In this document: positions 11,922 to 49,878 of the stretch, in pieces | Numbering within the stretch: the first letter of the stretch is position 1 | Layout: each line of letters starts with the position of its first letter | Position numbers and translations under genes: made by a program | The notes under the pieces: model-generated | Told to the model about the DNA's origin: nothing | What the model saw: the letters and a program-made list of their open reading frames with translations, nothing else | Databases searched by the model: none | Source of the DNA: an uncultured Bacteroidales bacterium | GTDB taxonomy: Bacteria; Bacteroidota; Bacteroidia; Bacteroidales; JAGOPY01 | NCBI GenBank assembly: GCA_963787195.1 | Contig: CAWBCI010000020.1 | Location: 60,237 to 124,236, forward strand | Reading direction: 5' to 3' | DNA: 64,000 nucleotides

Positions 11922-13118
11922 TCAGCAGGCTGAAAAAATTAAAGTTGAATCATTCCCGCCGAAACCAAAAGAATTGCTCAAGACATTTAGGATCTTGCGG
12001 TCTTTCAGGAATTCCCTGGTAGGTTCAAAGTCCAGTTCATCCATCTTCTCGCTGAAATTCAGGTTGGGAAAGATCAATTGTTCCTGAATGGCAAGGGAGG
12101 AAATGACTGCTTCAACAGCTCCTGCCGCTCCCAGGGTATGGCCTGTAAGGGGTTTTGTCGATGAGAATGCCGGGATATGGGGAGAAAAGATTCGTCCTAT
12201 CGCGATTCCCTCTGTCAGGTCATTATTGTCAGTACCGGTCCCGTGAGCATTGATGTAATCAATATCAGCAGACCGCAGACCGGCGCTTTCCAGGGCTCCT
12301 TTCATAGAAAGGTAAGGCCCCAGGCCATTGGGTGATGAGGCGGTTTGATGGTAGGCATCATTCGCATTGGCATATCCTTTGACCTCGCAATATCGTTTTT
12401 TGTTTCGTGTCAGTTCTTCCGCTTCGAGCACCAGGTAAGCCGCGCCTTCACCCAGGTTCAGGCCTGTCCGGTTCTTATCAAAAGGCCGGCATTGTTGTTT
12501 ATCCAGGATCATCAGGGTGTTAAACCCGTTCAGGGTGAATTTGGAAAGCGAATCGGTGCCCCCGACTATGACCCTGTCGAGCAAACCGGCTTTGATCATC
12601 CGGGCCCCCATCATGATAGAATTGGCGGATGAAGAACAGGCGGTGCTGATAGTTGTGATAAAACCATTCAGGCCGAAGAAATCGGCCAAACGTTCGGTAC
12701 TGTCGCCGCAATCATGCGTGAAAATGAAATAATTATAAGGATAACCCTTTTCAAAATTCCGGAAATTGATCTCCGTCTTATCCATACCCCCGACGGTAGT
12801 GGCATTGATAATGCCGGTACGGATACCTTTTTCGGTCGGGTCGATGCCGGCTGATCCGACCGCTTCGCTTGCAGCCGTGAGTCCCAGCAGTGCAGTCCGC
12901 GACATGAATGGATCAAAGGGAATATTCAGAAATTCAGCCAGTTGCTCATTGCCTTTTTTGACCTCACCAACGGGTATGTGCCCTTGATGAACAGTAGACA
13001 GGGATGTGATCGGGCCAATCCCGCTCCTGGAATTTTTGAGGGCATCAAGTACTTCAGCAACATTATTGCCAATAGCACTGATGATACCGATTCCGCTAAC
13101 GATAACCCTTACTCCCAT
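11922..13118 (-). CDS. beta-ketoacyl-ACP synthase (FabF/KS I-II type)
   Basis: TISTACSSSANSI active-site Cys, plus the INAHGTGT and GHTLGAAG histidines and a C-terminal SFGFGGN. Confidence 0.9.
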   Translation of the reverse strand: MGVRVIVSGIGIISAIGNNVAEVLDALKNSRSGIGPITSLSTVHQGHIPVGEVKKGNEQLAEFLNIPFDPFMSRTALLGLTAASEAVGSAGIDPTEKGIRTGIINATTVGGMDKTEINFRNFEKGYPYNYFIFTHDCGDSTERLADFFGLNGFITTISTACSSSANSIMMGARMIKAGLLDRVIVGGTDSLSKFTLNGFNTLMILDKQQCRPFDKNRTGLNLGEGAAYLVLEAEELTRNKKRYCEVKGYANANDAYHQTASSPNGLGPYLSMKGALESAGLRSADIDYINAHGTGTDNNDLTEGIAIGRIFSPHIPAFSSTKPLTGHTLGAAGAVEAVISSLAIQEQLIFPNLNFSEKMDELDFEPTREFLKDRKILNVLSNSFGFGGNDSTLIFSAC

Positions 13119-13125
13119 GCAAATT

Positions 13126-13380
13126 TTACTTTTGGTGCTCCCTGATAAAGTCAGCTATTGTCCTCACAGAGGCAAATATTTTACGACCGTCTTTCGGATC
13201 TTCGATCTTAATACCGTAATTTTTTTCCAAAAGGACGATTAGTTCGAGTGCATCTATTGAATCCAGTCCGAGCCCATCCCCAAATAAGGCGGCATCGGTA
13301 TCTATGTCTTCAGGACGAATATCTTCCAGGTTCAGGACTTCGACGATCTCTTTCTTGAGTTTAGTAATTAGTTCTTCCAT
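13126..13380 (-). CDS. acyl carrier protein
   Basis: 84 aa with the phosphopantetheine site LGLDSIDALELI. Confidence 0.9.
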   Translation of the reverse strand: MEELITKLKKEIVEVLNLEDIRPEDIDTDAALFGDGLGLDSIDALELIVLLEKNYGIKIEDPKDGRKIFASVRTIADFIREHQK

Positions 13381-13985
13381 TATTTTAAGACTGTTTCATT
13401 AAATAATTGGCTTATTGATTTTGGGTCAAAGATAATATTTTCCGATGCTTGCCCGGAAGAAATTAAGCCCGGGTCCCGTTCTACCAGAAAAAGGCAGGAT
13501 TCGAGCCTTTCATGGTAACATTCCACCCATCCGCTAAGCACACACTCAACCTTATCGAGCGCGAAAAGTTCAGTCACATAGCTATGAATAAATTCAGGAT
13601 CGGGTTTTTCAAAGATGAAAACGGAGTTTTCTCCCCTCAGCTTATGCCGTATAGCCATTTCACCGGCCATGATATTGGCAAGCGTATAAACAAAAACTGA
13701 TGGGCTGGGAAAATACTTTGCACGGTCGTCTATAGTTTCCTGGTGCTTCTCATCCGTTTCCAGTGAAGAAGATGAATTCAGGAGGATGATTCCGGTTTTT
13801 TCGGATTTGTATTTTTGGATGATGTCAGTATCTTGCAATAAAAGTTCAGCCGAAAGTAAACCAAGTTTAGCCAGATTATCCATTTTGAAAAACTTGGGAT
13901 ATGAAAGATGCAGTTTGCGATATACAGCTTTTAAAAATTCACTACTCTTTTCAAAATCCTGGCTGAATATTTCTTTATTATTCAC
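13380..13985 (-). CDS. small KS-N-terminal-like / conserved aryl-polyene cluster protein
   Basis: 201 aa, translationally coupled to the ACP gene. No catalytic Cys is evident. Confidence 0.5.
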   Translation of the reverse strand: MNNKEIFSQDFEKSSEFLKAVYRKLHLSYPKFFKMDNLAKLGLLSAELLLQDTDIIQKYKSEKTGIILLNSSSSLETDEKHQETIDDRAKYFPSPSVFVYTLANIMAGEMAIRHKLRGENSVFIFEKPDPEFIHSYVTELFALDKVECVLSGWVECYHERLESCLFLVERDPGLISSGQASENIIFDPKSISQLFNETVLK

Positions 13986-14121
13986 ATGGACTTTGCCACT
14001 TGTTTAGCGATATATATTTAGAAATCTTCAATTGCATTTCATTTTTTTTCATTTTTGAAAGAAGATAAAAAAATCCATTATTTCAAATTCAGGATAAAAT
14101 ACAAACAAGAACGTCAATGAT

Positions 14122-15300
14122 TTAGGGATTTTTATTGAAGATTACCGCTGCATTGCAGCCGCCGAAACCCGATGCAATTTTTAGGCTCATTTTAATATTC
14201 TCATCCTTATTTTCCTTGATTATATTCAGGGGCTGTGAAACGCCATGGATGCGGTATCCGGCCGAGGCAATCAGCTTCCTGTTTTTCATTGAATAGAGTG
14301 TCAGGGCTGATTCGATGATCCCGGCTGCACCGAGTGTATGCCCGATGTATGCTTTGAAGCTGTTCAATGGAACCTGGTTCAGCCCGGCCCTTGTCAAAGC
14401 TTTTGCTTCCATCTCATCATTGTATGGGGTTGCCGTTCCATGGGCCGAGATGTAATCAAGGTCCCCCGGATTTATACCGGCCTGTGCCATAGCTCCAAAT
14501 ATGGAGAGATAAAGCCCTTCGCCTTCCCGGGATGGCCCGGAAATATGGTTTGCATCGTTATTGCTGTTACTTCCGGTGATTGTGATTTTTTCACTGATAC
14601 CGGTCATTTCAACTTGCCGGGATAAGATGACGGCGGCAGATCCTTCTCCCAGTGAAAGGCCGTCGCGATCGCGGTCAAAAGGTTTGCAGATTCCGGGACT
14701 AAGCGATTGGAATGACTGGAAGCCTGAGATCACAAATTCGCTTGCGAGGTCCCCGCCGACAATCACGGCATGATCATATCTTCCGGATCGGATCAGGCGC
14801 TCGCCTGTAATGATGGCAAGCAAACCGGATATACAGGCATTGCTTACAACTATGGGTTTATTCACTGCCCCCAGGTATTTCCCGATGATCTCAGCCATTT
14901 TCCACAGGTAAAGCCTTTCCGGATCAAATTCTTTCTTTCCCCGTTTTTCGAGAAGGTCGATGTTTCCTTTGGTTGATGAAAGTATGAAGATGGTTTTAGT
15001 ATCCTGCAGTTTCACTTCTGATTTTGATAAAACATCTTCCAGGGAGAGGAGCATCATTTTCTCCAGCCGGGTGAATCCGTTTTTTGGGCCCTGTCCTGAA
15101 TGTGAATCCATATAAAAGGAAAAAAGTTTTTCCAATGCGCTGTGGTCTGTTAATGAAATTGCTACAGGGGAAGGATATAAGTTTTTATCATCTGTTAGCC
15201 GAACTCCGGAAATTCCCTGAAGCATATTTTCCGCGTTTTCTGCAGAAGTAAATCCAAGAGAGGAGATAATATTGTCAGCTCCTATGTAGACCTCAGTCAT
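14122..15300 (-). CDS. beta-ketoacyl-ACP synthase
   Basis: VSNACISGLLAI active-site Cys, ISAHGTATP and GHTLGAAG histidines, ASGFGGCNAAV. Start moved to MTEVYIG. Confidence 0.85.
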   Translation of the reverse strand: MTEVYIGADNIISSLGFTSAENAENMLQGISGVRLTDDKNLYPSPVAISLTDHSALEKLFSFYMDSHSGQGPKNGFTRLEKMMLLSLEDVLSKSEVKLQDTKTIFILSSTKGNIDLLEKRGKKEFDPERLYLWKMAEIIGKYLGAVNKPIVVSNACISGLLAIITGERLIRSGRYDHAVIVGGDLASEFVISGFQSFQSLSPGICKPFDRDRDGLSLGEGSAAVILSRQVEMTGISEKITITGSNSNNDANHISGPSREGEGLYLSIFGAMAQAGINPGDLDYISAHGTATPYNDEMEAKALTRAGLNQVPLNSFKAYIGHTLGAAGIIESALTLYSMKNRKLIASAGYRIHGVSQPLNIIKENKDENIKMSLKIASGFGGCNAAVIFNKNP

Positions 15301-15372
15301 AATCAGTAAAATGAAGGGCAAAAGTAAGACATTTCGGAAATCTATTGTTTTTAGGCTGGTTTCTATAAGATA

Positions 15373-15804
15373 TTATTCAGGATGGAAATCCCATTTTTCC
15401 TTCCATTCTGCAAAAAAATGCGGAACAGTCAGGACCAGCTCCCTTTGCATATCCAGGAAAACCTGCACGCTTTCACCGGTAGCGACCAGGACTTTGTCGG
15501 AAGCCCTGTAAATATTGAACTGATAGACAAGTTTTGCTGCGTCACTGTATTTCAGACTGGTTTCGACAAGGGCATGATCGCCATATTCGAGTGACTTTTT
15601 GAAATCGCATTTGAGGCTCACCACAGGTGCCATATAGCCAAAGCTGAGGATATCCATATAGCTGATTCCGTATTTTTTACCGAAATCTTCCCTGCCTTCT
15701 TCCATATATTGAATATAATGCCCATGCCAAACGATCTGCATCATATCCACCTCATTGAAACGGACTTCCACTTCCGTCATGGTCTTTAATTCATTTTCGG
15801 ACAT
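15373..15804 (-). CDS. 4HBT/YbgC-like acyl-CoA (acyl-ACP) thioesterase
   Basis: 143 aa hotdog protein, VRFNEVDMMQIVWHGHY. Confidence 0.8.
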   Translation of the reverse strand: MSENELKTMTEVEVRFNEVDMMQIVWHGHYIQYMEEGREDFGKKYGISYMDILSFGYMAPVVSLKCDFKKSLEYGDHALVETSLKYSDAAKLVYQFNIYRASDKVLVATGESVQVFLDMQRELVLTVPHFFAEWKEKWDFHPE

Positions 15805-17150
15805 AAGGATTATATATTTTATTTATGATGATATGAAATATAATTCAGAACGAAATTAGTAAATCCGGCCAATATCATTCAGTCGGATCGAAGATTATAA
15901 GTAGGGAATGATTTTATTTTTTAGAGATTTTCAGCCAGGAATTTCCACAAAAGCGAGCGCCGTAGGCGCGACATGTCTATAGCAATGAAGTGAGGAAGTC
16001 AATATCAAGAGCTCCGTAGGAGCGGCACTATGGGAAAATATTTTATTGGAATAAATCTTGCCATAATAATGCCGCTCCTACGGAGCTCTGATTCTAAACT
16101 TGATCCATTTTTCTATAGACATGACGCTGCTACGCAGCTCAAATTAATAGCTGGTTCTCACATTTGTGTTAGGATGCTACCAGTACGATTTCGCCAATTG
16201 CCGGTTTGAATTTGATCATGGATAGGTCGTTGGTGTAGGGTTCTATTTTAAAGCCTGATATCGCATCGATTAGAAAATTGAATTGAAGGCAATTGTTTAT
16301 TGAATTTCAGGAAGATCAGAAATAATTAGGTTAGAATTTCCACAAAAGCGAGCGCCGTAGGCGCGGCATGTCTATAGCAATGAAGTGAGGAAGGCAATGT
16401 CAAGAGCTCCGTAGGAGCGGCACTATGGGAAAATATTTTATTGGAATAAATCTTGCCATAATAATGCCGCTCCTACGGAGCTCTGATTCTAAACTTGATC
16501 CATTTTTCTATAGACATGACGCTGCTACGCAGCTCAAATTAATAGCTGGTTCTCACATTTGTGTTAGGATGCTACCAGTACGATTTCGCCAATTGCCGGT
16601 TTGAATTTGATCATGGATAGGTCGTTGGTGTAGGGTTCTATTTTAAAGCCTGATATCGCATCGATTAGAAAATTGAATTGAAGGCAATTGTTTATTGAAT
16701 TTCAGGAGGATCAGAAATAATTAGGTTAGAATTTCCACAAAAGCGAGCGCCGTAGGCGCGACATGTCTATAGCAATGAAGGAGGAAGGGAATATCATGAG
16801 CTCCGTAGGAGCGGCACTATGGGAAAATATTTTATTGGAATAAATCTTGCCATAATAATGCCGCTCCTACGGAGCTCTGGTTTAAAATTTGATCCGTATT
16901 TTCTATAAACATGACGCTGCTACGCAGCTCTAATTAGTAGCTAGTTCTCACATTCGAGTAATAATGCTGCCAACACGTTTCGGCGAATTGCCGGATTTTA
17001 TTTAATCATAGAATTGTCGTTGGTAAACAGACCTATTCTAGTGCTTGATTTGGTGGCGGTATAATGCCTGATAGAAAAATGAATTGGAAGGAGTTTTATT
17101 TATTGAATTTCAGGGGGATTAGAAATATTTAGGCCAGGAATTTCCACAAA

Positions 17151-17761
17151 AGCGAGCGCCGTAGGCGCGGCATGTCTATAGCAATGAAGGAGGAAGGGAA
17201 TATCAAGAGCTCCGTAGGAGCGGCACTATTCGTCATTAAAAATATAATCAGAATTAAAATCTATATCATTGTGATTGAGAAAATCAATGTATTCCTCACG
17301 GAATGTTCTTGTTTTGTGATGTTCTTCCTGATTATTAATATATTCTATAATGAATGGAAGTTGCGTTTGACCCAGGGTAAAAGCCCCAAAGCCTTGTTGC
17401 CATTCAAATTTGCCTGAAACATATTTGTTCTCGTTTATAAATCTTGATGAGTTGGCTTTGACATCTCTCATTATATCAGATAAATTAACATCGGGTTTTA
17501 GCCCAATCAACAAATGAATATGGTTGTTAACACCATTAATTGCAATAAGTTTTTGATTTTTTTTACGGATAATCCCCGTGATGTATTTATAGAGTTCTTC
17601 TTTCCATTTCCTGGAAATTAAGTTGGTTCTGCCTTTAACGGCGTATACCACATGATAATAAAGTTGCGTGTATGTGTTTGCCATAATAATGCCGCTCCTA
17701 CGGAGCTCTGGTTTTAAATTTGATCCGGTTTTTCTATAAACATGTCGCTGCTACGCAGCTC
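17151..17761 (-). mobile_element. RAYT-bearing unit: Y1 transposase gene bracketed by the inner and outer REP inverted repeats
   Basis: The same arms as in the short units, but the ~40 bp loop is replaced by the 459 bp transposase ORF. Confidence 0.6.
17226..17684 (-). CDS. REP-associated tyrosine transposase (RAYT) / IS200-IS605 family Y1 HUH transposase
   Basis: 152 aa. HUH motif NNHIHLLIG and C-terminal catalytic Tyr region IEYINNQEEHH. The gene ends abut the REP hairpins directly. Confidence 0.85.
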   Translation of the reverse strand: MANTYTQLYYHVVYAVKGRTNLISRKWKEELYKYITGIIRKKNQKLIAINGVNNHIHLLIGLKPDVNLSDIMRDVKANSSRFINENKYVSGKFEWQQGFGAFTLGQTQLPFIIEYINNQEEHHKTRTFREEYIDFLNHNDIDFNSDYIFNDE

Positions 17762-18367
17762 TAGTTTAGTGCATAATATACATGTTTTGTGCCAAATCTT
17801 GTAAAATGGGGAAAAGGGTAGGACTGAAAAAGCCTCAAATATCTAAATTTTTTACCACCAAATATGAAATTTCCACAAAAGCGAGCGCCGTAGGCGCGAC
17901 ATGTCTATAGCAATGATGTGAGAAGTCAATGTCAAGAGCTCCGTAGGAGCGGCACTATGGGAAAATATTTTATTGGAATAAATCTTGCCATAATAATGCC
18001 GCTCCTACGGAGATCTGATTCTAAACTTGATCCATTTTTCTATAGACATGATGCTGCTACGCAGCTCTAATTAGTAGCTGGTTCTCACATTCGAGTAATA
18101 ATGCTGCCAACACGTTTCGGCGAATTGCCGCTTTTAATTTAATCATATACACATCGTTCAAATATGGCTCTATTCTAAATCTTGATTTAAAGATTTTGTC
18201 TAGAATAGAAATCGATTTGAAGGGAATTATTTATTGAATTTCAGGGGGATTAGAAATATTTAGGCTGGAATTTCCACAAAAGCGAGCGCCGTAGGCGCGA
18301 CATGTCTATAGCAATGATGGAGGAAGGGAATATCAAGAGCTCCGTAGGAGCGGCACTAAAGGGGCTT

Positions 18368-19651
18368 TCAATAATTCCTCCTGCTTTTATTATAGATGAG
18401 GGCGGTGAAAAGCGATAGCAGGAAAAATGCAAACAGCAAAGCAGCATAAGGCAGGATTTCGAACCATCCCCCTCCTCTTAAAAATATATTGTAAAAACCA
18501 TCCATACCCCAGTTCAGGGGAGATATGATGCTTATTTTCTGCATAAAAGCCGGCATCAGGAAAACAGGTACCCACAAGCCTCCAATGGCCGACAATATGA
18601 TCACCGACACCGAGCCGAAAGAGGCAGCCTGTTCAAAGGTATTCGCAATGGTCCCGATCATTACCCCATAGCCGGTGGCTGCAAGTGCGGTTGCAAAACC
18701 CATGATCATAAGTGCCAGCCTGTGATCACCTATATTCAGGGAAGGCAAACCAAACAGAGGGATAATCAATATCCCCAGCAGCAGTATCAAAACAAACTGT
18801 ACCAGGCAAACCCCGAGGTAAACTATGATCTTTGAGCCAAGTACATGAAAATAAGTTCCGGGCATGATCTTCAATCTCTGGGATGTGCCACTTTCCCTTT
18901 CTTTGATCAGATTCCCCGTAAGCGGGATGACTATAAAGAACATTGCAAAAATAGTCCAGGCAGGAATATTATGCTGGACAGAATTGGGAATCATGGTATT
19001 ATATTCATTGCTCGCATATACCTCCTGCAGGTTGATACCGCCCCTGGTGTCAAATGCCGGGGTTTTAATATTGGGCAGATATTTAGAGATCTCCTGTGCA
19101 AAAGTTTCAAAGGTGATCTTTGCTTCTATCTTATTGGTGAAGTTTTCAAGTACAGTACGGACAGTCTGTTTGAAGGAATTCTTGATCACCGGATCGAAAT
19201 ACAGGATGATATTCGCTTGCGCCAGGGAATCTATATTGAAGGCTGAACTGTCGCTGTTCCCCGATATGGCCTCATCTACCAGGGCTTTGCCTCTTTCCCG
19301 AATAGCTTTGCTTGCCCCCGGCCCGACAATAATCCCGATTTGGTATTTACCTTCAGCGATCTCATTTCTAACTATTTGCTCGTTCAGTGGCTGATCGTTA
19401 ATTTCCGTAACAGGATTTAAAAATTTCTGGGCCTGCAATCCTTTCCCGATATAATATCCAAGTGAATCATGGTCCAGGTCCAGGAAAAGCACCGTCAATT
19501 TAGTCTCATCAAGTTTTCGGAAAGTCATATCCTGTATCAGGGTCATGACCAGCACCAGGAAAACAGGCATGATAAATAGTATCGCCAGACCGGCCCGGTC
19601 GCGGGAGAGCAATAAAATTTCTTTCCATATGGAGGCCAGCATTCTTTTCAT
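18368..19651 (-). CDS. ABC-2 type transporter permease
   Basis: 427 aa with an N-terminal TM, a large periplasmic loop and a 5-TM C-terminal bundle. Start/stop overlap with the ATPase gene (coupled). Confidence 0.8.
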   Translation of the reverse strand: MKRMLASIWKEILLLSRDRAGLAILFIMPVFLVLVMTLIQDMTFRKLDETKLTVLFLDLDHDSLGYYIGKGLQAQKFLNPVTEINDQPLNEQIVRNEIAEGKYQIGIIVGPGASKAIRERGKALVDEAISGNSDSSAFNIDSLAQANIILYFDPVIKNSFKQTVRTVLENFTNKIEAKITFETFAQEISKYLPNIKTPAFDTRGGINLQEVYASNEYNTMIPNSVQHNIPAWTIFAMFFIVIPLTGNLIKERESGTSQRLKIMPGTYFHVLGSKIIVYLGVCLVQFVLILLLGILIIPLFGLPSLNIGDHRLALMIMGFATALAATGYGVMIGTIANTFEQAASFGSVSVIILSAIGGLWVPVFLMPAFMQKISIISPLNWGMDGFYNIFLRGGGWFEILPYAALLFAFFLLSLFTALIYNKSRRNY

Positions 19652-20406
19652 TATTGATCTCTTAATGTCCTCCCGGTAAGTTTAATAAAAACACTTTCCA
19701 GGTTTGTAGAGCCTGGCTGAGCGGCAATGAGTTCTCCGGGCCTGCCTTCTGCAAGTATACGCCCCTGGTCGATAATGGCTATATCGCTGCACAGATGCTC
19801 GGCTTCTTCCATATAATGGGAAGTGTAAATTATCGTAGTCCCTTTTTCATTGATCTCCCTGAGGTATTCAAGTATTACCGCCCTGGATTGCACATCCACA
19901 CCCACTGTGGGTTCATCCAGGATCAAAATGCCAGGTTGGTGAAGGATGCCAGCTATCAGGTTGATCCTTCTTTTCATTCCACCTGAAAAAGTTTTAATCT
20001 TCCTGCGACCATACTTGTGAAGGCCAAATAAATGCAGGCATTCATCTATCCGGCTTTTTAGTTCATGACCCTGTAATCCGTACATTCTGCCTATAAACTG
20101 CAAATTTTCGAGGGCTGTGAGGGTAGGGTAGAGGGCTATATCCTGGGGGACAACCCCAATGAATTGTTTGATTTCAGCCAGGTGATTCCGGATATTCAGG
20201 CCCTTTATCATGATTTTACCGCTATCGGGAAGGAGCAATCCGCAAAGGATGCTGATAGTGGTGGTTTTTCCGGCCCCGTTGGGGCCCAGGAGTCCGTAAA
20301 TACTTCCTGCAGGTATGCCAAGGGATATCTTATCAAGAGCAGGGTCAGACGACCCTTTATAAACTTTGACAAGATCCTTTATCACTATGGCTTCAGCAGA
20401 GTTCAA
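19651..20406 (-). CDS. ABC transporter ATP-binding protein
   Basis: Walker A GPNGAGKTT, signature FSGGMKRR, Walker B ILILDEPT. Confidence 0.9.
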   Translation of the reverse strand: MNSAEAIVIKDLVKVYKGSSDPALDKISLGIPAGSIYGLLGPNGAGKTTTISILCGLLLPDSGKIMIKGLNIRNHLAEIKQFIGVVPQDIALYPTLTALENLQFIGRMYGLQGHELKSRIDECLHLFGLHKYGRRKIKTFSGGMKRRINLIAGILHQPGILILDEPTVGVDVQSRAVILEYLREINEKGTTIIYTSHYMEEAEHLCSDIAIIDQGRILAEGRPGELIAAQPGSTNLESVFIKLTGRTLRDQ

Positions 20407-21425
20407 TCTATCTGTTTAATTTGGCTGAGTTTGATAAAAATCTTTTCTTCCCGGTCAGCGATATCCATCAGCACATCGGAAGCTGCACGGTAACTTTCTT
20501 CTACCCCGTTACGGTTCTTAAATATTCTTCCGGCGATGATGGCAAATTCCCTCCAGCGATCACCAGCTGCTGTCATCTCAGCTGAAACCTCGTTCAGCCA
20601 ATCCTGTTGCAAAACAATGGCAGCTTCCTGCAGGAAAGCCGCGTAAATAAAGCGGAATCCGCCACCGCCCGTACCTATTTCTTCGAGCATCCTCACAAGC
20701 TGACCCAGGTAAAGGGATGCTTTCTTAGGGCCAAGCTTATTTGGCCAGTTGCGCATCCGCCGTGCAGTGTACCTTATTCCCTTCACACCGAAAAGGGGTA
20801 TAGGTATCTTTAACATTTCCTTGCTGGTGTATTTTATGCCGTGCACTATGGCCTTTTTCAAGTCAAAATCTTCCGAAATACCCTCTATATAATACATTCT
20901 TCCCCTTGGAGGGTATGTCCCCCTGGCAAATCTGACCCGCATAAGGTCATGGTAAGTAAGTTTTTCAACTTTCTCCATTACCGGATCACTTATAATGTAT
21001 TCCCCGTTTTCTCGCCCTATCACGACCAGGTTATGGGCATTGAAATGAAAACGGTAAGCTTTGGGGAAATAGGTCAGATGATAAACCCCTACCAAACAAC
21101 CGGTTGGAATACCCTTTTTAAGATTCACATCAAGGGCATCCATGGCTTCCTTCTGATCCCTGAATTTGTCCCTGTGAATTTTGATACCAAGTCTATGAGT
21201 AATGCGGTTGAAGATCATGCCCGGCCATGGCCTGAAAGAGAAAACAGGCAGCCCATTCACTTTGATGAAGGGCATATAGGAATAAAACAGACCACTGCCT
21301 ATACCAAATACCATGGGCTCACTCAGATTTATGCCATGGTATTTCAGCAGGTTTGAAGTTACACCGTTTTCACAGTGGGCAGCCTGGTGATGATTGAAAT
21401 CGATCAGCGTTGCTTTTTCGCTCAT
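20403..21425 (-). CDS. BtrH N-terminal domain / DUF4872-like protein (papain-like acyltransferase/peptidase fold)
   Basis: N-terminus HHQAAHCENGVTSNLLKYHGI..GIGSGLFYSY resembles the BtrH_N family. 340 aa. Confidence 0.55.
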   Translation of the reverse strand: MSEKATLIDFNHHQAAHCENGVTSNLLKYHGINLSEPMVFGIGSGLFYSYMPFIKVNGLPVFSFRPWPGMIFNRITHRLGIKIHRDKFRDQKEAMDALDVNLKKGIPTGCLVGVYHLTYFPKAYRFHFNAHNLVVIGRENGEYIISDPVMEKVEKLTYHDLMRVRFARGTYPPRGRMYYIEGISEDFDLKKAIVHGIKYTSKEMLKIPIPLFGVKGIRYTARRMRNWPNKLGPKKASLYLGQLVRMLEEIGTGGGGFRFIYAAFLQEAAIVLQQDWLNEVSAEMTAAGDRWREFAIIAGRIFKNRNGVEESYRAASDVLMDIADREEKIFIKLSQIKQID

Positions 21426-48974: not shown

Positions 48975-49427
48975 ATGGCTTCACATTTTAATTCCGTCCA
49001 CATCCATTTTGTGTTCAGCACCCTGAACAGGCAGAAACTCATCGCACCTGAAATCAGGGAAAGCCTATGGGCCTACATGGCCGGCATAGCATCAAATAAC
49101 AATATGAAAGCCCTGGTAATTGGAGGCGTCAGCGACCATGTCCACATGTTGATTTCCATGCCAACGACTATTACCATCGCAAAAGCCATACAATTAATCA
49201 AGGGTAATTCATCAAAATGGATCCATGAAGAATATAAGGACATAAGCAGGTTTGCCTGGCAGGTGGGATACGCATCCATCAGCGTAAGCCCCGGCCGGGT
49301 TGAAAGGACCGTCCGTTATATCCGCAACCAGGAATCGCATCATCGTGAAATGACCTTCAGGGAAGAATACCTGAAATTCATCAAAGAGGCCGGCCTTTCA
49401 TACGATGAACGGTTCATCTGGGGTTGA
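48975..49427 (+). CDS. IS200/IS605 family Y1 HUH transposase, RAYT-like (second, divergent copy)
   Basis: 150 aa with HUH SDHVHMLIS and a catalytic Tyr region VRYIRNQESHH. Small TTC/GAA-loop hairpins lie on both sides (AATCCAT-GAA-ATGGATT upstream; GTCCC-TTC-GGGAC and GGTCCG-TTC-CGGACC downstream). Confidence 0.85.
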   Translation: MASHFNSVHIHFVFSTLNRQKLIAPEIRESLWAYMAGIASNNNMKALVIGGVSDHVHMLISMPTTITIAKAIQLIKGNSSKWIHEEYKDISRFAWQVGYASISVSPGRVERTVRYIRNQESHHREMTFREEYLKFIKEAGLSYDERFIWG

Positions 49428-49687
49428 GACATGTACCGTCCCTTCGGGACTCGGAAACTTATTCTTGCCACCTTACCCAGACCTGAAGGGCGGGGCTATT
49501 GCTGTGCGGTCCGTTCCGGACCAGGGACATTGCTGATTTCGGAATTCAGATTGACGGAATTCACCCCCGTTTTAGTCTCAGTGGGGAGTCTCAGGCTAAG
49601 TGGGTGATTATGGAAGCTTGGATTGGTGGGTTAATATTGATTGCAGCTTGTTGATAGCCGATGGCGGATTCCTCATTGTCATTTTCA

Positions 49688-49878
49688 GTCGCGAAGCGAC
49701 GGTTGAACATAGCCCCGACATTCATGTCGGGGTAGGGAGAGCGGAAGAAAAATTGAAAGTCCCGTAAGGGACATAACAACAATAGCCCGGGCATTTATGC
49801 CCGGGGGAAAGGTGCAGTCTCGTAATTACAAGTCCCGTAAGGGACGAAACAGCCATTCCTGACATTTATGTCGGGAAT
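49688..49878. repeat. three tandem ~72 bp units, each with two short GC-stem hairpins
   Basis: Hairpins: GTCGC-GAA-GCGAC (49688-49700), CCCCGACATTCATGTCGGGG (49713-49732), GTCCC-GTAA-GGGAC (49759-49772), CCCGGGCATTTATGCCCGGG (49786-49805), GTCCC-GTAA-GGGAC (49832-49845) and CCTGACATTTATGTCGGG (~49858-49875). Confidence 0.8.

Follow-up and report, generated by a model that had tools for sequence, protein, structure and literature searches.

We analysed a window of 64 kb (the whole stretch of DNA considered here) from contig CAWBCI010000020.1 of a Bacteroidales-like uncultured bacterium, for which matching DNA occurs in salt-marsh metagenomes. About 16 kb into the window lies a tandem array of roughly 2.4 kb (15921-18358) composed of small DNA hairpins, one unit of which carries a gene, tnpA, for a transposase of the HUH/Y1 type. 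The array includes five units and a closing half unit arranged head-to-tail, that is, five intervals between six directly repeated left arms, together with five right arms, so that a left arm stands at either end (Table 1). Unit starts were read directly from the sequence (15938, 16334, 16729, 17138, 17866 and 18268). Tandem Repeats Finder reported a period of 395 bp with 3.2 copies and 91% matches (15939-17229); the call halts at 17229 because the gene interrupts unit 4, and units 5 and 6 were recovered beyond the gene by a repeat search. Direct reading and both programs agree, within a few nucleotides, with the unit starts and the five-plus-half layout proposed in an initial annotation of this DNA. 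That annotation placed the beginning of the array at 15938, which is correct as a unit start, but homology begins about 17 nt earlier (around 15921) and extends to 18358.

The repeat unit is 395-409 bp long, and each full unit contains two direct and two inverted hairpins. From the left, a 17-nt leader is followed by an outer hairpin GCGCC-GTA-GGCGC with its tail GACATGTCTATAGC, a 24-nt linker and an inner hairpin GCTCC-GTA-GGAGC with its tail GGCACTAT. A short central loop, an inverted copy of the inner hairpin, a linker, an inverted outer hairpin GCTGC-GTA-GCAGC and a spacer of 190-207 bp complete the unit. The motif GAGCNNCGTAGNNGCG, allowing at most one mismatch, is matched 22 times (0.07 expected; this number was reached by 0/100 shuffles). 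All matches lie within 15955-18352 (six copies each of the outer-left and inner-left hairpins, five each of the inner-right and outer-right ones) and none was found in the remainder of the window; in unit 5, two of the copies depart from the motif by a single mismatch. Three stem variants are present, GCGCC/GGCGC, GCTCC/GGAGC and GCTGC/GCAGC, and their differences are compensating. The nested inverted pairs of 5-bp GTA hairpins, and the paired changes that preserve them, had been noticed in the initial annotation and are confirmed here.

In unit 4, the position of the central loop is taken by a 152-codon minus-strand open reading frame, tnpA, whose start codon lies inside one inner tail and whose stop codon lies inside the other. 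The inverted arms around the gene measure 77 nt and are 73% complementary. The element of the short units folds as one long hairpin (-49.8 kcal/mol, z = -9.0), similar to that of a REPIN, an inverted doublet of repetitive extragenic palindromes (REPs). In these short units a tnpA-type ATG also opens a 19-codon frame (MARFIPIKYFPIVPLLRSS) through the loop and inner hairpin (16019-16078 on the minus strand; units 2, 3 and 5 alike). This frame is probably meaningless, its conservation resulting from the identity of loop and hairpin among units.

Table 1. Coordinates of the array and of its flanking genes in the window
Feature	Coordinates	Strand	Remarks
flanking gene, 4HBT thioesterase	15373..15804	-	
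whole array	15921..18358	.	fills the gap between two co-oriented genes
unit 1 left arm	15938..16031	+	leader, outer hairpin with full tail, 24-nt linker, inner hairpin with short tail
unit 1 central loop	16032..16058	.	identical in units 1, 2, 3 and 5
unit 1 right arm	16059..16140	-	inverted inner module (tail contains ATGGC) and outer module GCTGC-GTA-GCAGC
spacer S1	16141..16333	.	non-coding; 99.5% identical to S2, 70-73% to S3 and S5
unit 2 left arm	16334..16426	+	96.9% identical to unit 1
unit 2 right arm	16454..16535	-	
spacer S2	16536..16728	.	
unit 3 left arm	16729..16820	+	
unit 3 right arm	16848..16930	-	94% identical to unit 4 right arm
spacer S3	16931..17137	.	79% identical to S5
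unit 4 left arm	17138..17229	+	downstream of tnpA; inner tail overlaps the TAG stop codon
tnpA, 152-aa HUH/Y1 transposase	17226..17684	-	NHIH, WQ and YINNQEEHH motifs
unit 4 right arm	17679..17761	-	upstream of tnpA; both of its modules, in direct order, face the ATG; start codon lies within the inner tail
spacer S4	17762..17865	.	only ~12 nt at the left end and the leader at the right end match S1-S3 and S5
unit 5 left arm	17866..17958	+	
unit 5 right arm	17986..18067	-	one mismatch in each hairpin
spacer S5	18068..18267	.	
closing left arm (half unit)	18268..18358	+	ends at GGCACTA, 9 nt before the permease stop codon
flanking gene, ABC-2 permease	18368..19651	-	

An array of this kind in a metagenome-derived contig could be a repeat collapsed or expanded during assembly. 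Units 1 and 2 are 99% identical, so that their number is less secure and could have been misjudged, and in public runs the region is covered only thinly and by fragments. One salt-marsh contig moreover joins S3 (16995) straight to S5 (18132), skipping the tnpA unit 4 and the arms of unit 5; this join represents a deletion that arose naturally or else an artefact in the graph of the short-read assembly. On the other hand, the spacers of units 3, 4 and 5 differ by 20-40% and are therefore not products of miscounting one unit. Independent, low-coverage contigs from salt-marsh and soil metagenomes reproduce the left boundary (15602-15960) and the junctions U2/U3, U3/U4 and U4/U5; being short, these contigs bear on the junctions and not on the number of units. 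Comparable arrays are also found in isolate genomes, such as that of Dyadobacter jejuensis. An assembly artefact is thus extremely improbable. A scan of the JGI metagenomes with the leader and outer hairpin 28-mer gave 0 matches. In one metagenome, a strain of ~95% identity has different bases (TTATTTATGA) directly before 18366 (window 18358-18367), so that strains may vary at the right-hand junction of the array.

TnpA matches Pfam Y1_Tnp with 99.2 bits, and its HUH motif, its tyrosine and its full reading frame are intact. It passes the NCBIfam IS200/IS605 equivalog model NF033573 (79 bits, cut-off 55), and its homologues are named IS200/IS605 by the NCBI annotation pipeline PGAP. The nearest solved structures are IS608 TnpA (E=1e-6) and ISDra2 TnpA; NHIH and YINNQ align to the HUH motif and the Y127 region of IS608 TnpA, while E. 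coli TnpA-REP is absent from the PDB matches even at E<=10. The Y---Q--HH signature (YINNQEEHH), the EWQQ motif and the length of 152 aa fit subclass 1.2 of Quentin et al. 2018 (PMC6006769), which was defined by Y---Q--HH, WQ, ~148 aa and a conserved C-terminal segment and was listed without REP or associated terminal structures. This lineage is probably the same as what Bertels et al. 2017 (PMC5581495) call 'RAYT-like IS200 Group 3', the two being equated by description. That group was reported without duplicates, with no member on plasmids and with abundant flanking 16-mers.

With such a profile, unit 4 could be an active, purely selfish insertion sequence (IS) of the IS200 family, the short units derivatives of it similar to miniature inverted-repeat transposable elements (MITEs), and the array the result of repeated adjacent insertion. 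The equivalog assignment, the naming of the homologues and the closest structures agree with this proposal. So do an identity of 70-73% to proteins of other phyla, which suggests horizontal transfer, and the sharp, mobile element-like ends of a homologous element in Hymenobacter gummosus described below. However, IS200/IS605 ends are co-oriented hairpins and lack terminal inverted repeats, whereas the arms here are inverted. The window holds one full copy, its second paralogue being only 31% identical. The lineage is reported as low-copy (1.7 copies per genome), with divergent paralogues (36% identical; PMC6006769) and no duplicates (PMC5581495), and close relatives are almost absent from plasmids (2/72,556, both on records of ~600 kb). 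Finally, the spacers between units are mutually homologous, which fits duplication of units rather than independent insertions. We consider this selfish-element explanation quite improbable.

The DNA signal that accompanies the gene was defined on 80 loci of TnpA homologues with 51-73% identity (the protein-side set). Up to 160 nt from the gene, the density of GC-rich 5-bp hairpins reaches 9.4 per kb compared to a background of 0.28 per kb, a 34-fold enrichment. At least one flanking hairpin is present in 75/80 loci, and 45/80 have hairpins on both sides. The tails point gene-ward on either side (upstream 53/120 versus 11/118, downstream 39/120 versus 10/119). The commonest map of modules is about -77+, -26+, gene, +19-, +72-, which is the two-and-two layout of unit 4, and most homologues have their proximal hairpin 8-15 nt ahead of the tnpA start codon ATG. 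A covarying 5-bp stem and a 14-nt 3′ tail (GRMATRTYWRTAGM) are conserved in the family, the tail consensus over 564 distinct modules being G-R-M-A-T-R-T-Y-W-R-T-A-G-M. The loop, by contrast, varies among homologues (GTA 57, AGA 36, AGC 30, ATA 22, ATC 16, and others). In E. coli REPs, GTAG is not part of the stem but a foot located 5′ of it (Ton-Hoang et al. 2012, PMC3333891; Quentin et al. 2018, PMC6006769). The initial annotation had noted GTAG in every arm and related it to the conserved tetranucleotide of E. coli REPs, but G-T-A is the loop in the array. Since this loop varies among the homologues, GTAG is not the determinant of the family; the 3′ tail is the conserved element.

A second set was composed of separate loci chosen for holding the inner 19-mer GAGCTCCGTAGGAGCGGCA. 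When the tail matrix built from the protein-side loci was applied to this set, a perfect 5-bp stem abutted the tail in 170/319 tail matches, compared to 1.4 in shuffles. This figure partly follows from the selection of the loci; without the matches preceded by GCTCC-GTA-GGAGC, 135/284 keep the stem. Stems abutting tails included GCTCC, GCCCC, GTCCC, GCCGC, GCGCC, GCCAC and ACCCC, each with its complement. When 150 distinct sequences were aligned on their tails without gaps, 64% of the cells of the helix were paired, versus 52% in shuffles and 42-45% in slid controls, and the covariation score was 0.328 versus 0.194 (reached by 0/500 shuffles). As judged from these alignments, the hairpin structure is under selection. 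The base before the stem (A) also covaries with the first tail base (G), as does the next pair outward (-1/tail 0 and -2/tail 1, respectively), which fits closing G.A pairs. On comparative grounds, the module can be described as a GC-rich 5-bp hairpin closed by putative G.A mismatches and followed by the tail of ~14 nt. Two direct modules constitute an arm; two inverted arms and a short loop constitute a REPIN-like element of four hairpins; and the same arms placed around tnpA constitute the full unit.

The inner hairpin is widely shared. Counted in species-representative genomes, exact copies of GAGCTCCGTAGGAGCGGCA occur at >116 loci. According to record titles the hosts are Bacteroidota, Acidobacteriota, Verrucomicrobiota, Ignavibacteria, Planctomycetes and Sumerlaeia. 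Most of these loci have a second hairpin with tail ~25 nt upstream, many have an inverted copy just downstream, and a tnpA homologue is near 9/116 of them among the matches listed. No paper was retrieved by a full-text literature search for the 13-mer GCTCCGTAGGAGC. In H. gummosus, the same four-hairpin element is dispersed, with conserved modules and variable linkers: 8 aligned copies on different contigs end sharply at the feet of the outer hairpins, and their flanks are unrelated. The outer 21-mer of this species (hairpin and tail, GTAGCGGCGCCACGTCAATAG) occurs at 14 loci and, among 185,579 species representatives, in that species only. The inner hairpin is therefore common to several phyla, and the outer one looks lineage-specific.

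Tandem amplification next to the gene is a recurrent feature of the family and resembles the arrays of the E. coli REPtron and of bacterial interspersed mosaic elements (BIME-2). Arrays located beside homologous genes have periods of ~26, 47, 50 and 52 bp and of 150-200 bp. A metagenome-assembled genome (MAG) of Saprospiraceae carries an array next to tnpA with a period of 275-281 bp, and D. jejuensis a module array with a period of 265 bp. In a Chitinophagaceae MAG, an inner-hairpin array with a period of 56-57 nt lies beside a separate 62-nt tandem repeat with the palindrome CACCCGCCTGAAGGCGGGC; the examined parts of the contigs carrying this array yielded no tnpA homologue. Clusters of REPs reiterated together with flanking DNA have also been described (Di Nocera et al. 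2013, PMC3733652). The long tandem unit had initially been thought unusual. In view of these published clusters and of arrays with periods of 26 to ~280 bp beside homologous genes or modules, the 395-bp unit is at the long end of a range and is not a new kind of arrangement. We also observed that some homologous genes have, before or after them, 5 to 11 directly repeated modules with periods of 26, 47, 50 or 52 nt, and that modules at 26-52-nt periods are pure concatemers of hairpin and tail, almost without linker.

Within the array, divergence between units is unevenly distributed. Hairpin-plus-tail segments show 0-2 differences per 23-30 nt (0-8%) and the central loop 0 differences in 34 nt, compared to up to 8 differences in 24 nt for the linkers (up to 33%) and 14-42% divergence for the spacers. 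The left arms, ~95 nt long, are 96-97% identical. Unit 5 is a mosaic: its linkers resemble those of unit 1 and the first part of its spacer resembles that of unit 3, and segments have therefore been exchanged among units.

These features raise the question of whether the array was built and maintained by host processes only, through unequal RecA recombination or replication slippage, with the transposase uninvolved and maybe inactive. An arrangement of n intervals with n+1 direct arms is a classic product of recombination between direct repeats, the length and identity of the arms are sufficient for RecA, the points of exchange fall on the segments that are best conserved, and the near identity of units 1 and 2 is consistent with a recent duplication. 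Such processes nevertheless leave unexplained the divergence of 0-8% in hairpins and tails and 0% in the loop against 33-42% in linkers and spacers, as well as the recurrence of module arrays of many periods beside homologous genes. The transposase, furthermore, has kept its HUH motif, tyrosine and reading frame. A purely host-driven origin is, in our opinion, rather unlikely.

Several simple derivations of spacers and short units were considered and rejected. As duplicated flank, the spacers are not satisfactorily explained: the match of the left flank to spacers is limited to its final ~35 nt, and S4 matches nothing. As coding or pseudogene remnants, they gave no significant tblastn match to tnpA, to its paralogue or to the flanking genes; differences between spacers are not concentrated at third codon positions, and a stop is present in unit 3. 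The idea that short units are internal deletions of tnpA was dropped, since the ATGGC common to the loop region and the gene sits inside the module tail; the similarity between central loop and gene was not significant (p ~0.1 to 0.4).

The neighbourhood of the array includes two ketosynthases, an acyl carrier protein, an ABC ATPase and a BtrH_N/DUF4872 protein, that is, a gene cluster of fatty-acid/polyketide type. The closest relatives of the permease are found in Bacteroidales MAGs (54-60% identity). The two closest ones (59-60%) are labelled 'uncultured delta proteobacterium' while all other close matches are Bacteroidales or Bacteroidota, which suggests mislabelled bins or gene transfer. 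Exact-protein look-ups of tnpA, permease and thioesterase matched no record. The thioesterase gene follows the permease gene in 18/80 relatives, with a gap of tens of bp to ~170 bp in 16 of them and of ~0.9-1.2 kb in two, and the hairpin motif of the array was found at 0/80 permease-relative loci. Here the gap measures 2,563 bp. The array is therefore an insertion that has expanded, a structured insert of 2.4 kb between genes that are adjacent in relatives.

The flanking genes belong to an operon-like minus-strand run, and the hairpins might then act mainly on the messages of permease and thioesterase, by stabilising, processing or uncoupling them, tnpA being incidental. In line with such a role in RNA, these genes are co-oriented and mostly closely spaced in relatives, the short units form a very stable long hairpin, and the proximal hairpin before the tnpA ATG is in a position suited to translational control. 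The modules, however, track the transposase gene across phyla and not the operon, and the orientation rule is symmetric about tnpA instead of following the direction of transcription. A permissive Rfam scan of 15000-19000 returned no known RNA family, only sub-threshold plant and animal miRNA-hairpin matches. Together, these data make an RNA function very unlikely as the explanation of the array. Two other readings were rejected: a CRISPR, given mutually homologous spacers, four hairpins per unit and no cas among the eight neighbouring genes scanned (11922-21425), and terminators, given no T-runs after the hairpins.

In this organism the element appears to be confined to the array. In the best metagenome, the contig common to the short units has a depth of 16.4 versus 2.5-8.8 for unit-specific contigs (~2-6 times), which suggests a handful of copies and not a large dispersed family. 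The window also includes a second Y1 gene of subclass 1.2 (48975-49427, plus strand, 150 aa), the paralogue mentioned above, which is 31% identical to tnpA over its full length. It carries DHVH, WQ and YIRNQESHH motifs, and both paralogues share HHxxxTFREEY. This gene has its own inverted hairpin-plus-tail modules with a different stem, GTCCC/GGGAC. After its stop codon, GTCCC-TTC-GGGAC is located at ~49439 and GTCCG-GAA-CGGAC at ~49509. Two plus-strand GTCCC-GTAA-GGGAC modules (49759 and 49833) are interleaved with the small palindromes CCCGGGCATTTATGCCCGGG and CCCCGACATTCATGTCGGGG (region 48975-49860).

Taken together, these results make it likely that the locus is REPtron-like, namely a gene for an IS200-like Y1 transposase of single-stranded DNA lying between inverted cognate modules, with an array produced by local amplification. 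By analogy with IS608 TnpA and TnpA-REP, TnpA would bind the hairpin-plus-tail on single-stranded DNA and cut in or near the tail. Transfer of strands from one module to another of like orientation could then duplicate, delete and reshuffle intervals, a scheme modelled on proposals for TnpA-REP and BIME-2, and RecA recombination between the ~95-nt arms might help or replace this transfer.

A number of observations weigh against this REPtron-like interpretation. The initial annotation described a RAYT (REP-associated tyrosine transposase) gene in one unit: a Y1/HUH gene bracketed by inverted hairpin arms is indeed present, but its product fails the NCBIfam RAYT model REP_Tyr_transpos, NF047646 (30.5 bits, cut-off 80). 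By sequence the protein is not a RAYT, and by its end structure the locus is not an IS200/IS605 element. Pairing of guide and cleavage site of the IS608 type was not detected, mutual information between the 5′ bases and the distal tail being at background. Dispersal, a defining property of REPs, was not observed, since the array contains every copy present in the 64 kb and few are suggested by depth; of the REP family initially proposed, the wide sharing of the hairpin across several phyla stands, and a dispersed population in this organism was not seen over this range. Sequence comparisons found no recognisable origin for the ~200-bp spacers. A spacer of ~190 bp had been ascribed to the unit; in unit 4, however, the spacer (17762-17865) has no relation to the remaining four and matches nothing compared. 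Lastly, homologous recombination between the ~95-nt arms could be sufficient to generate the array, with no part played by the enzyme.

The standard case of a bacterial transposase that has been domesticated is provided by the REP/RAYT systems, which are known almost exclusively from Proteobacteria and from one Y1 clade. The present locus and the 80 homologous loci would represent a second, IS200-like Y1 clade with a REP/RAYT lifestyle, previously catalogued as repeat-less. The hairpin-plus-tail signal accompanies related genes in several phyla and is found, besides, in dispersed four-hairpin elements and in local arrays; it would extend REP/RAYT-type systems beyond one Y1 lineage. A stronger proposal is that subclass-1.2 proteins and their module form a distinct cross-phylum system of single-stranded DNA recombination, REP/RAYT-like and retained by the host, either domesticated independently or an IS200-like sister of RAYTs, in which the enzyme builds the arrays; we hold it to be possible but doubtful. 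Relative to the literature searched, three points appear to be new: the definition of the module cognate to this lineage, the rule for its orientation around the gene, and the cross-phylum invariance of the inner hairpin. As the published survey of the subclass reports no repeats, the present work would be the first to define the cognate DNA signal. Its near-invariance across phyla, unlike species-specific REPs, raises the question of horizontal transfer versus tight protein-DNA constraint. Being short, with a clear consensus and natural covariation, the signal is a readily testable enzyme substrate.

Among known systems, the BIME-2 clusters resemble the array in having head-to-tail REP pairs at one locus with variable linkers. 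A BIME-2 unit is roughly 100 bp or less and consists of REPs and short linkers only, whereas the unit described here reaches 395-409 bp including its spacer of 190-207 bp. Ton-Hoang et al. (2012, PMC3333891) described REPtrons in which BIME-2 copies stand in tandem, with linkers that vary and a copy number specific to the locus, and proposed enzyme-based models for their amplification. As in the E. coli REPtron (Ton-Hoang et al. 2012, PMC3333891; Nunvar 2010), a Y1/HUH gene lies here between inverted hairpin repeats, the locus contains head-to-tail amplified doublets of hairpins, the hairpins being conserved and the linkers variable, the gene is in single or low copy, and the repeats rather than the gene appear mobile. 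It differs in that TnpA belongs to another Y1 lineage, outside the RAYT model and with YxxxQxxHH in place of Y..NP, that its signal is a hairpin with a 3′ tail and not a 5′ GTAG/GTGG foot, and that, over the 64 kb and by metagenome depth, its copies were not seen dispersed.

The REPINs of Pseudomonas (Bertels and Rainey 2011, PMC3116915) are likewise inverted repeats that fold as one long hairpin, as the short units do, and the homologous H. gummosus element shares with them dispersal with sharp ends. In contrast, there are two hairpins per arm and four per element here, the copies in the window are tandem and not dispersed, and the inner hairpin is nearly invariant across phyla where REPINs are typically lineage-specific. 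TIRtrons/TIRYT differ in their TIR motifs (e.g. GGGGWSAS) and in their species set (Di Nocera et al. 2013, PMC3733652); the window sequence was found neither in that study nor in the other literature searched. The IS200/IS605 elements (IS608, ISDra2) are similar in catalytic core, in hidden Markov model membership and in the recognition of small DNA hairpins by the enzyme, and a cut a few nucleotides from the hairpin would be expected in both. They are unlike the present locus in their co-oriented ends, inverted here; no tnpB and no multicopy full-length element are present in the window, and no covariation of guide and cleavage site was detectable.

Another correspondence is with subclass 1.2 (PMC6006769), with which TnpA shares Y---Q--HH, WQ, a length of ~150 aa, the conserved C-terminal segment and a Bacteroidetes host. 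Low copy number with divergent paralogues (31% identity between the two genes in the 64 kb, 36% reported) and near absence from plasmids are further common features, and the abundant 16-mers reported to flank the genes of Bertels Group 3 (PMC5581495) are comparable to the modules found here. In contrast to the subclass as reported, the gene studied here and 75/80 of its homologues are flanked by a defined hairpin module, and the distribution is wider, including Verrucomicrobiota, Acidobacteriota, Ignavibacteria and Poribacteria.

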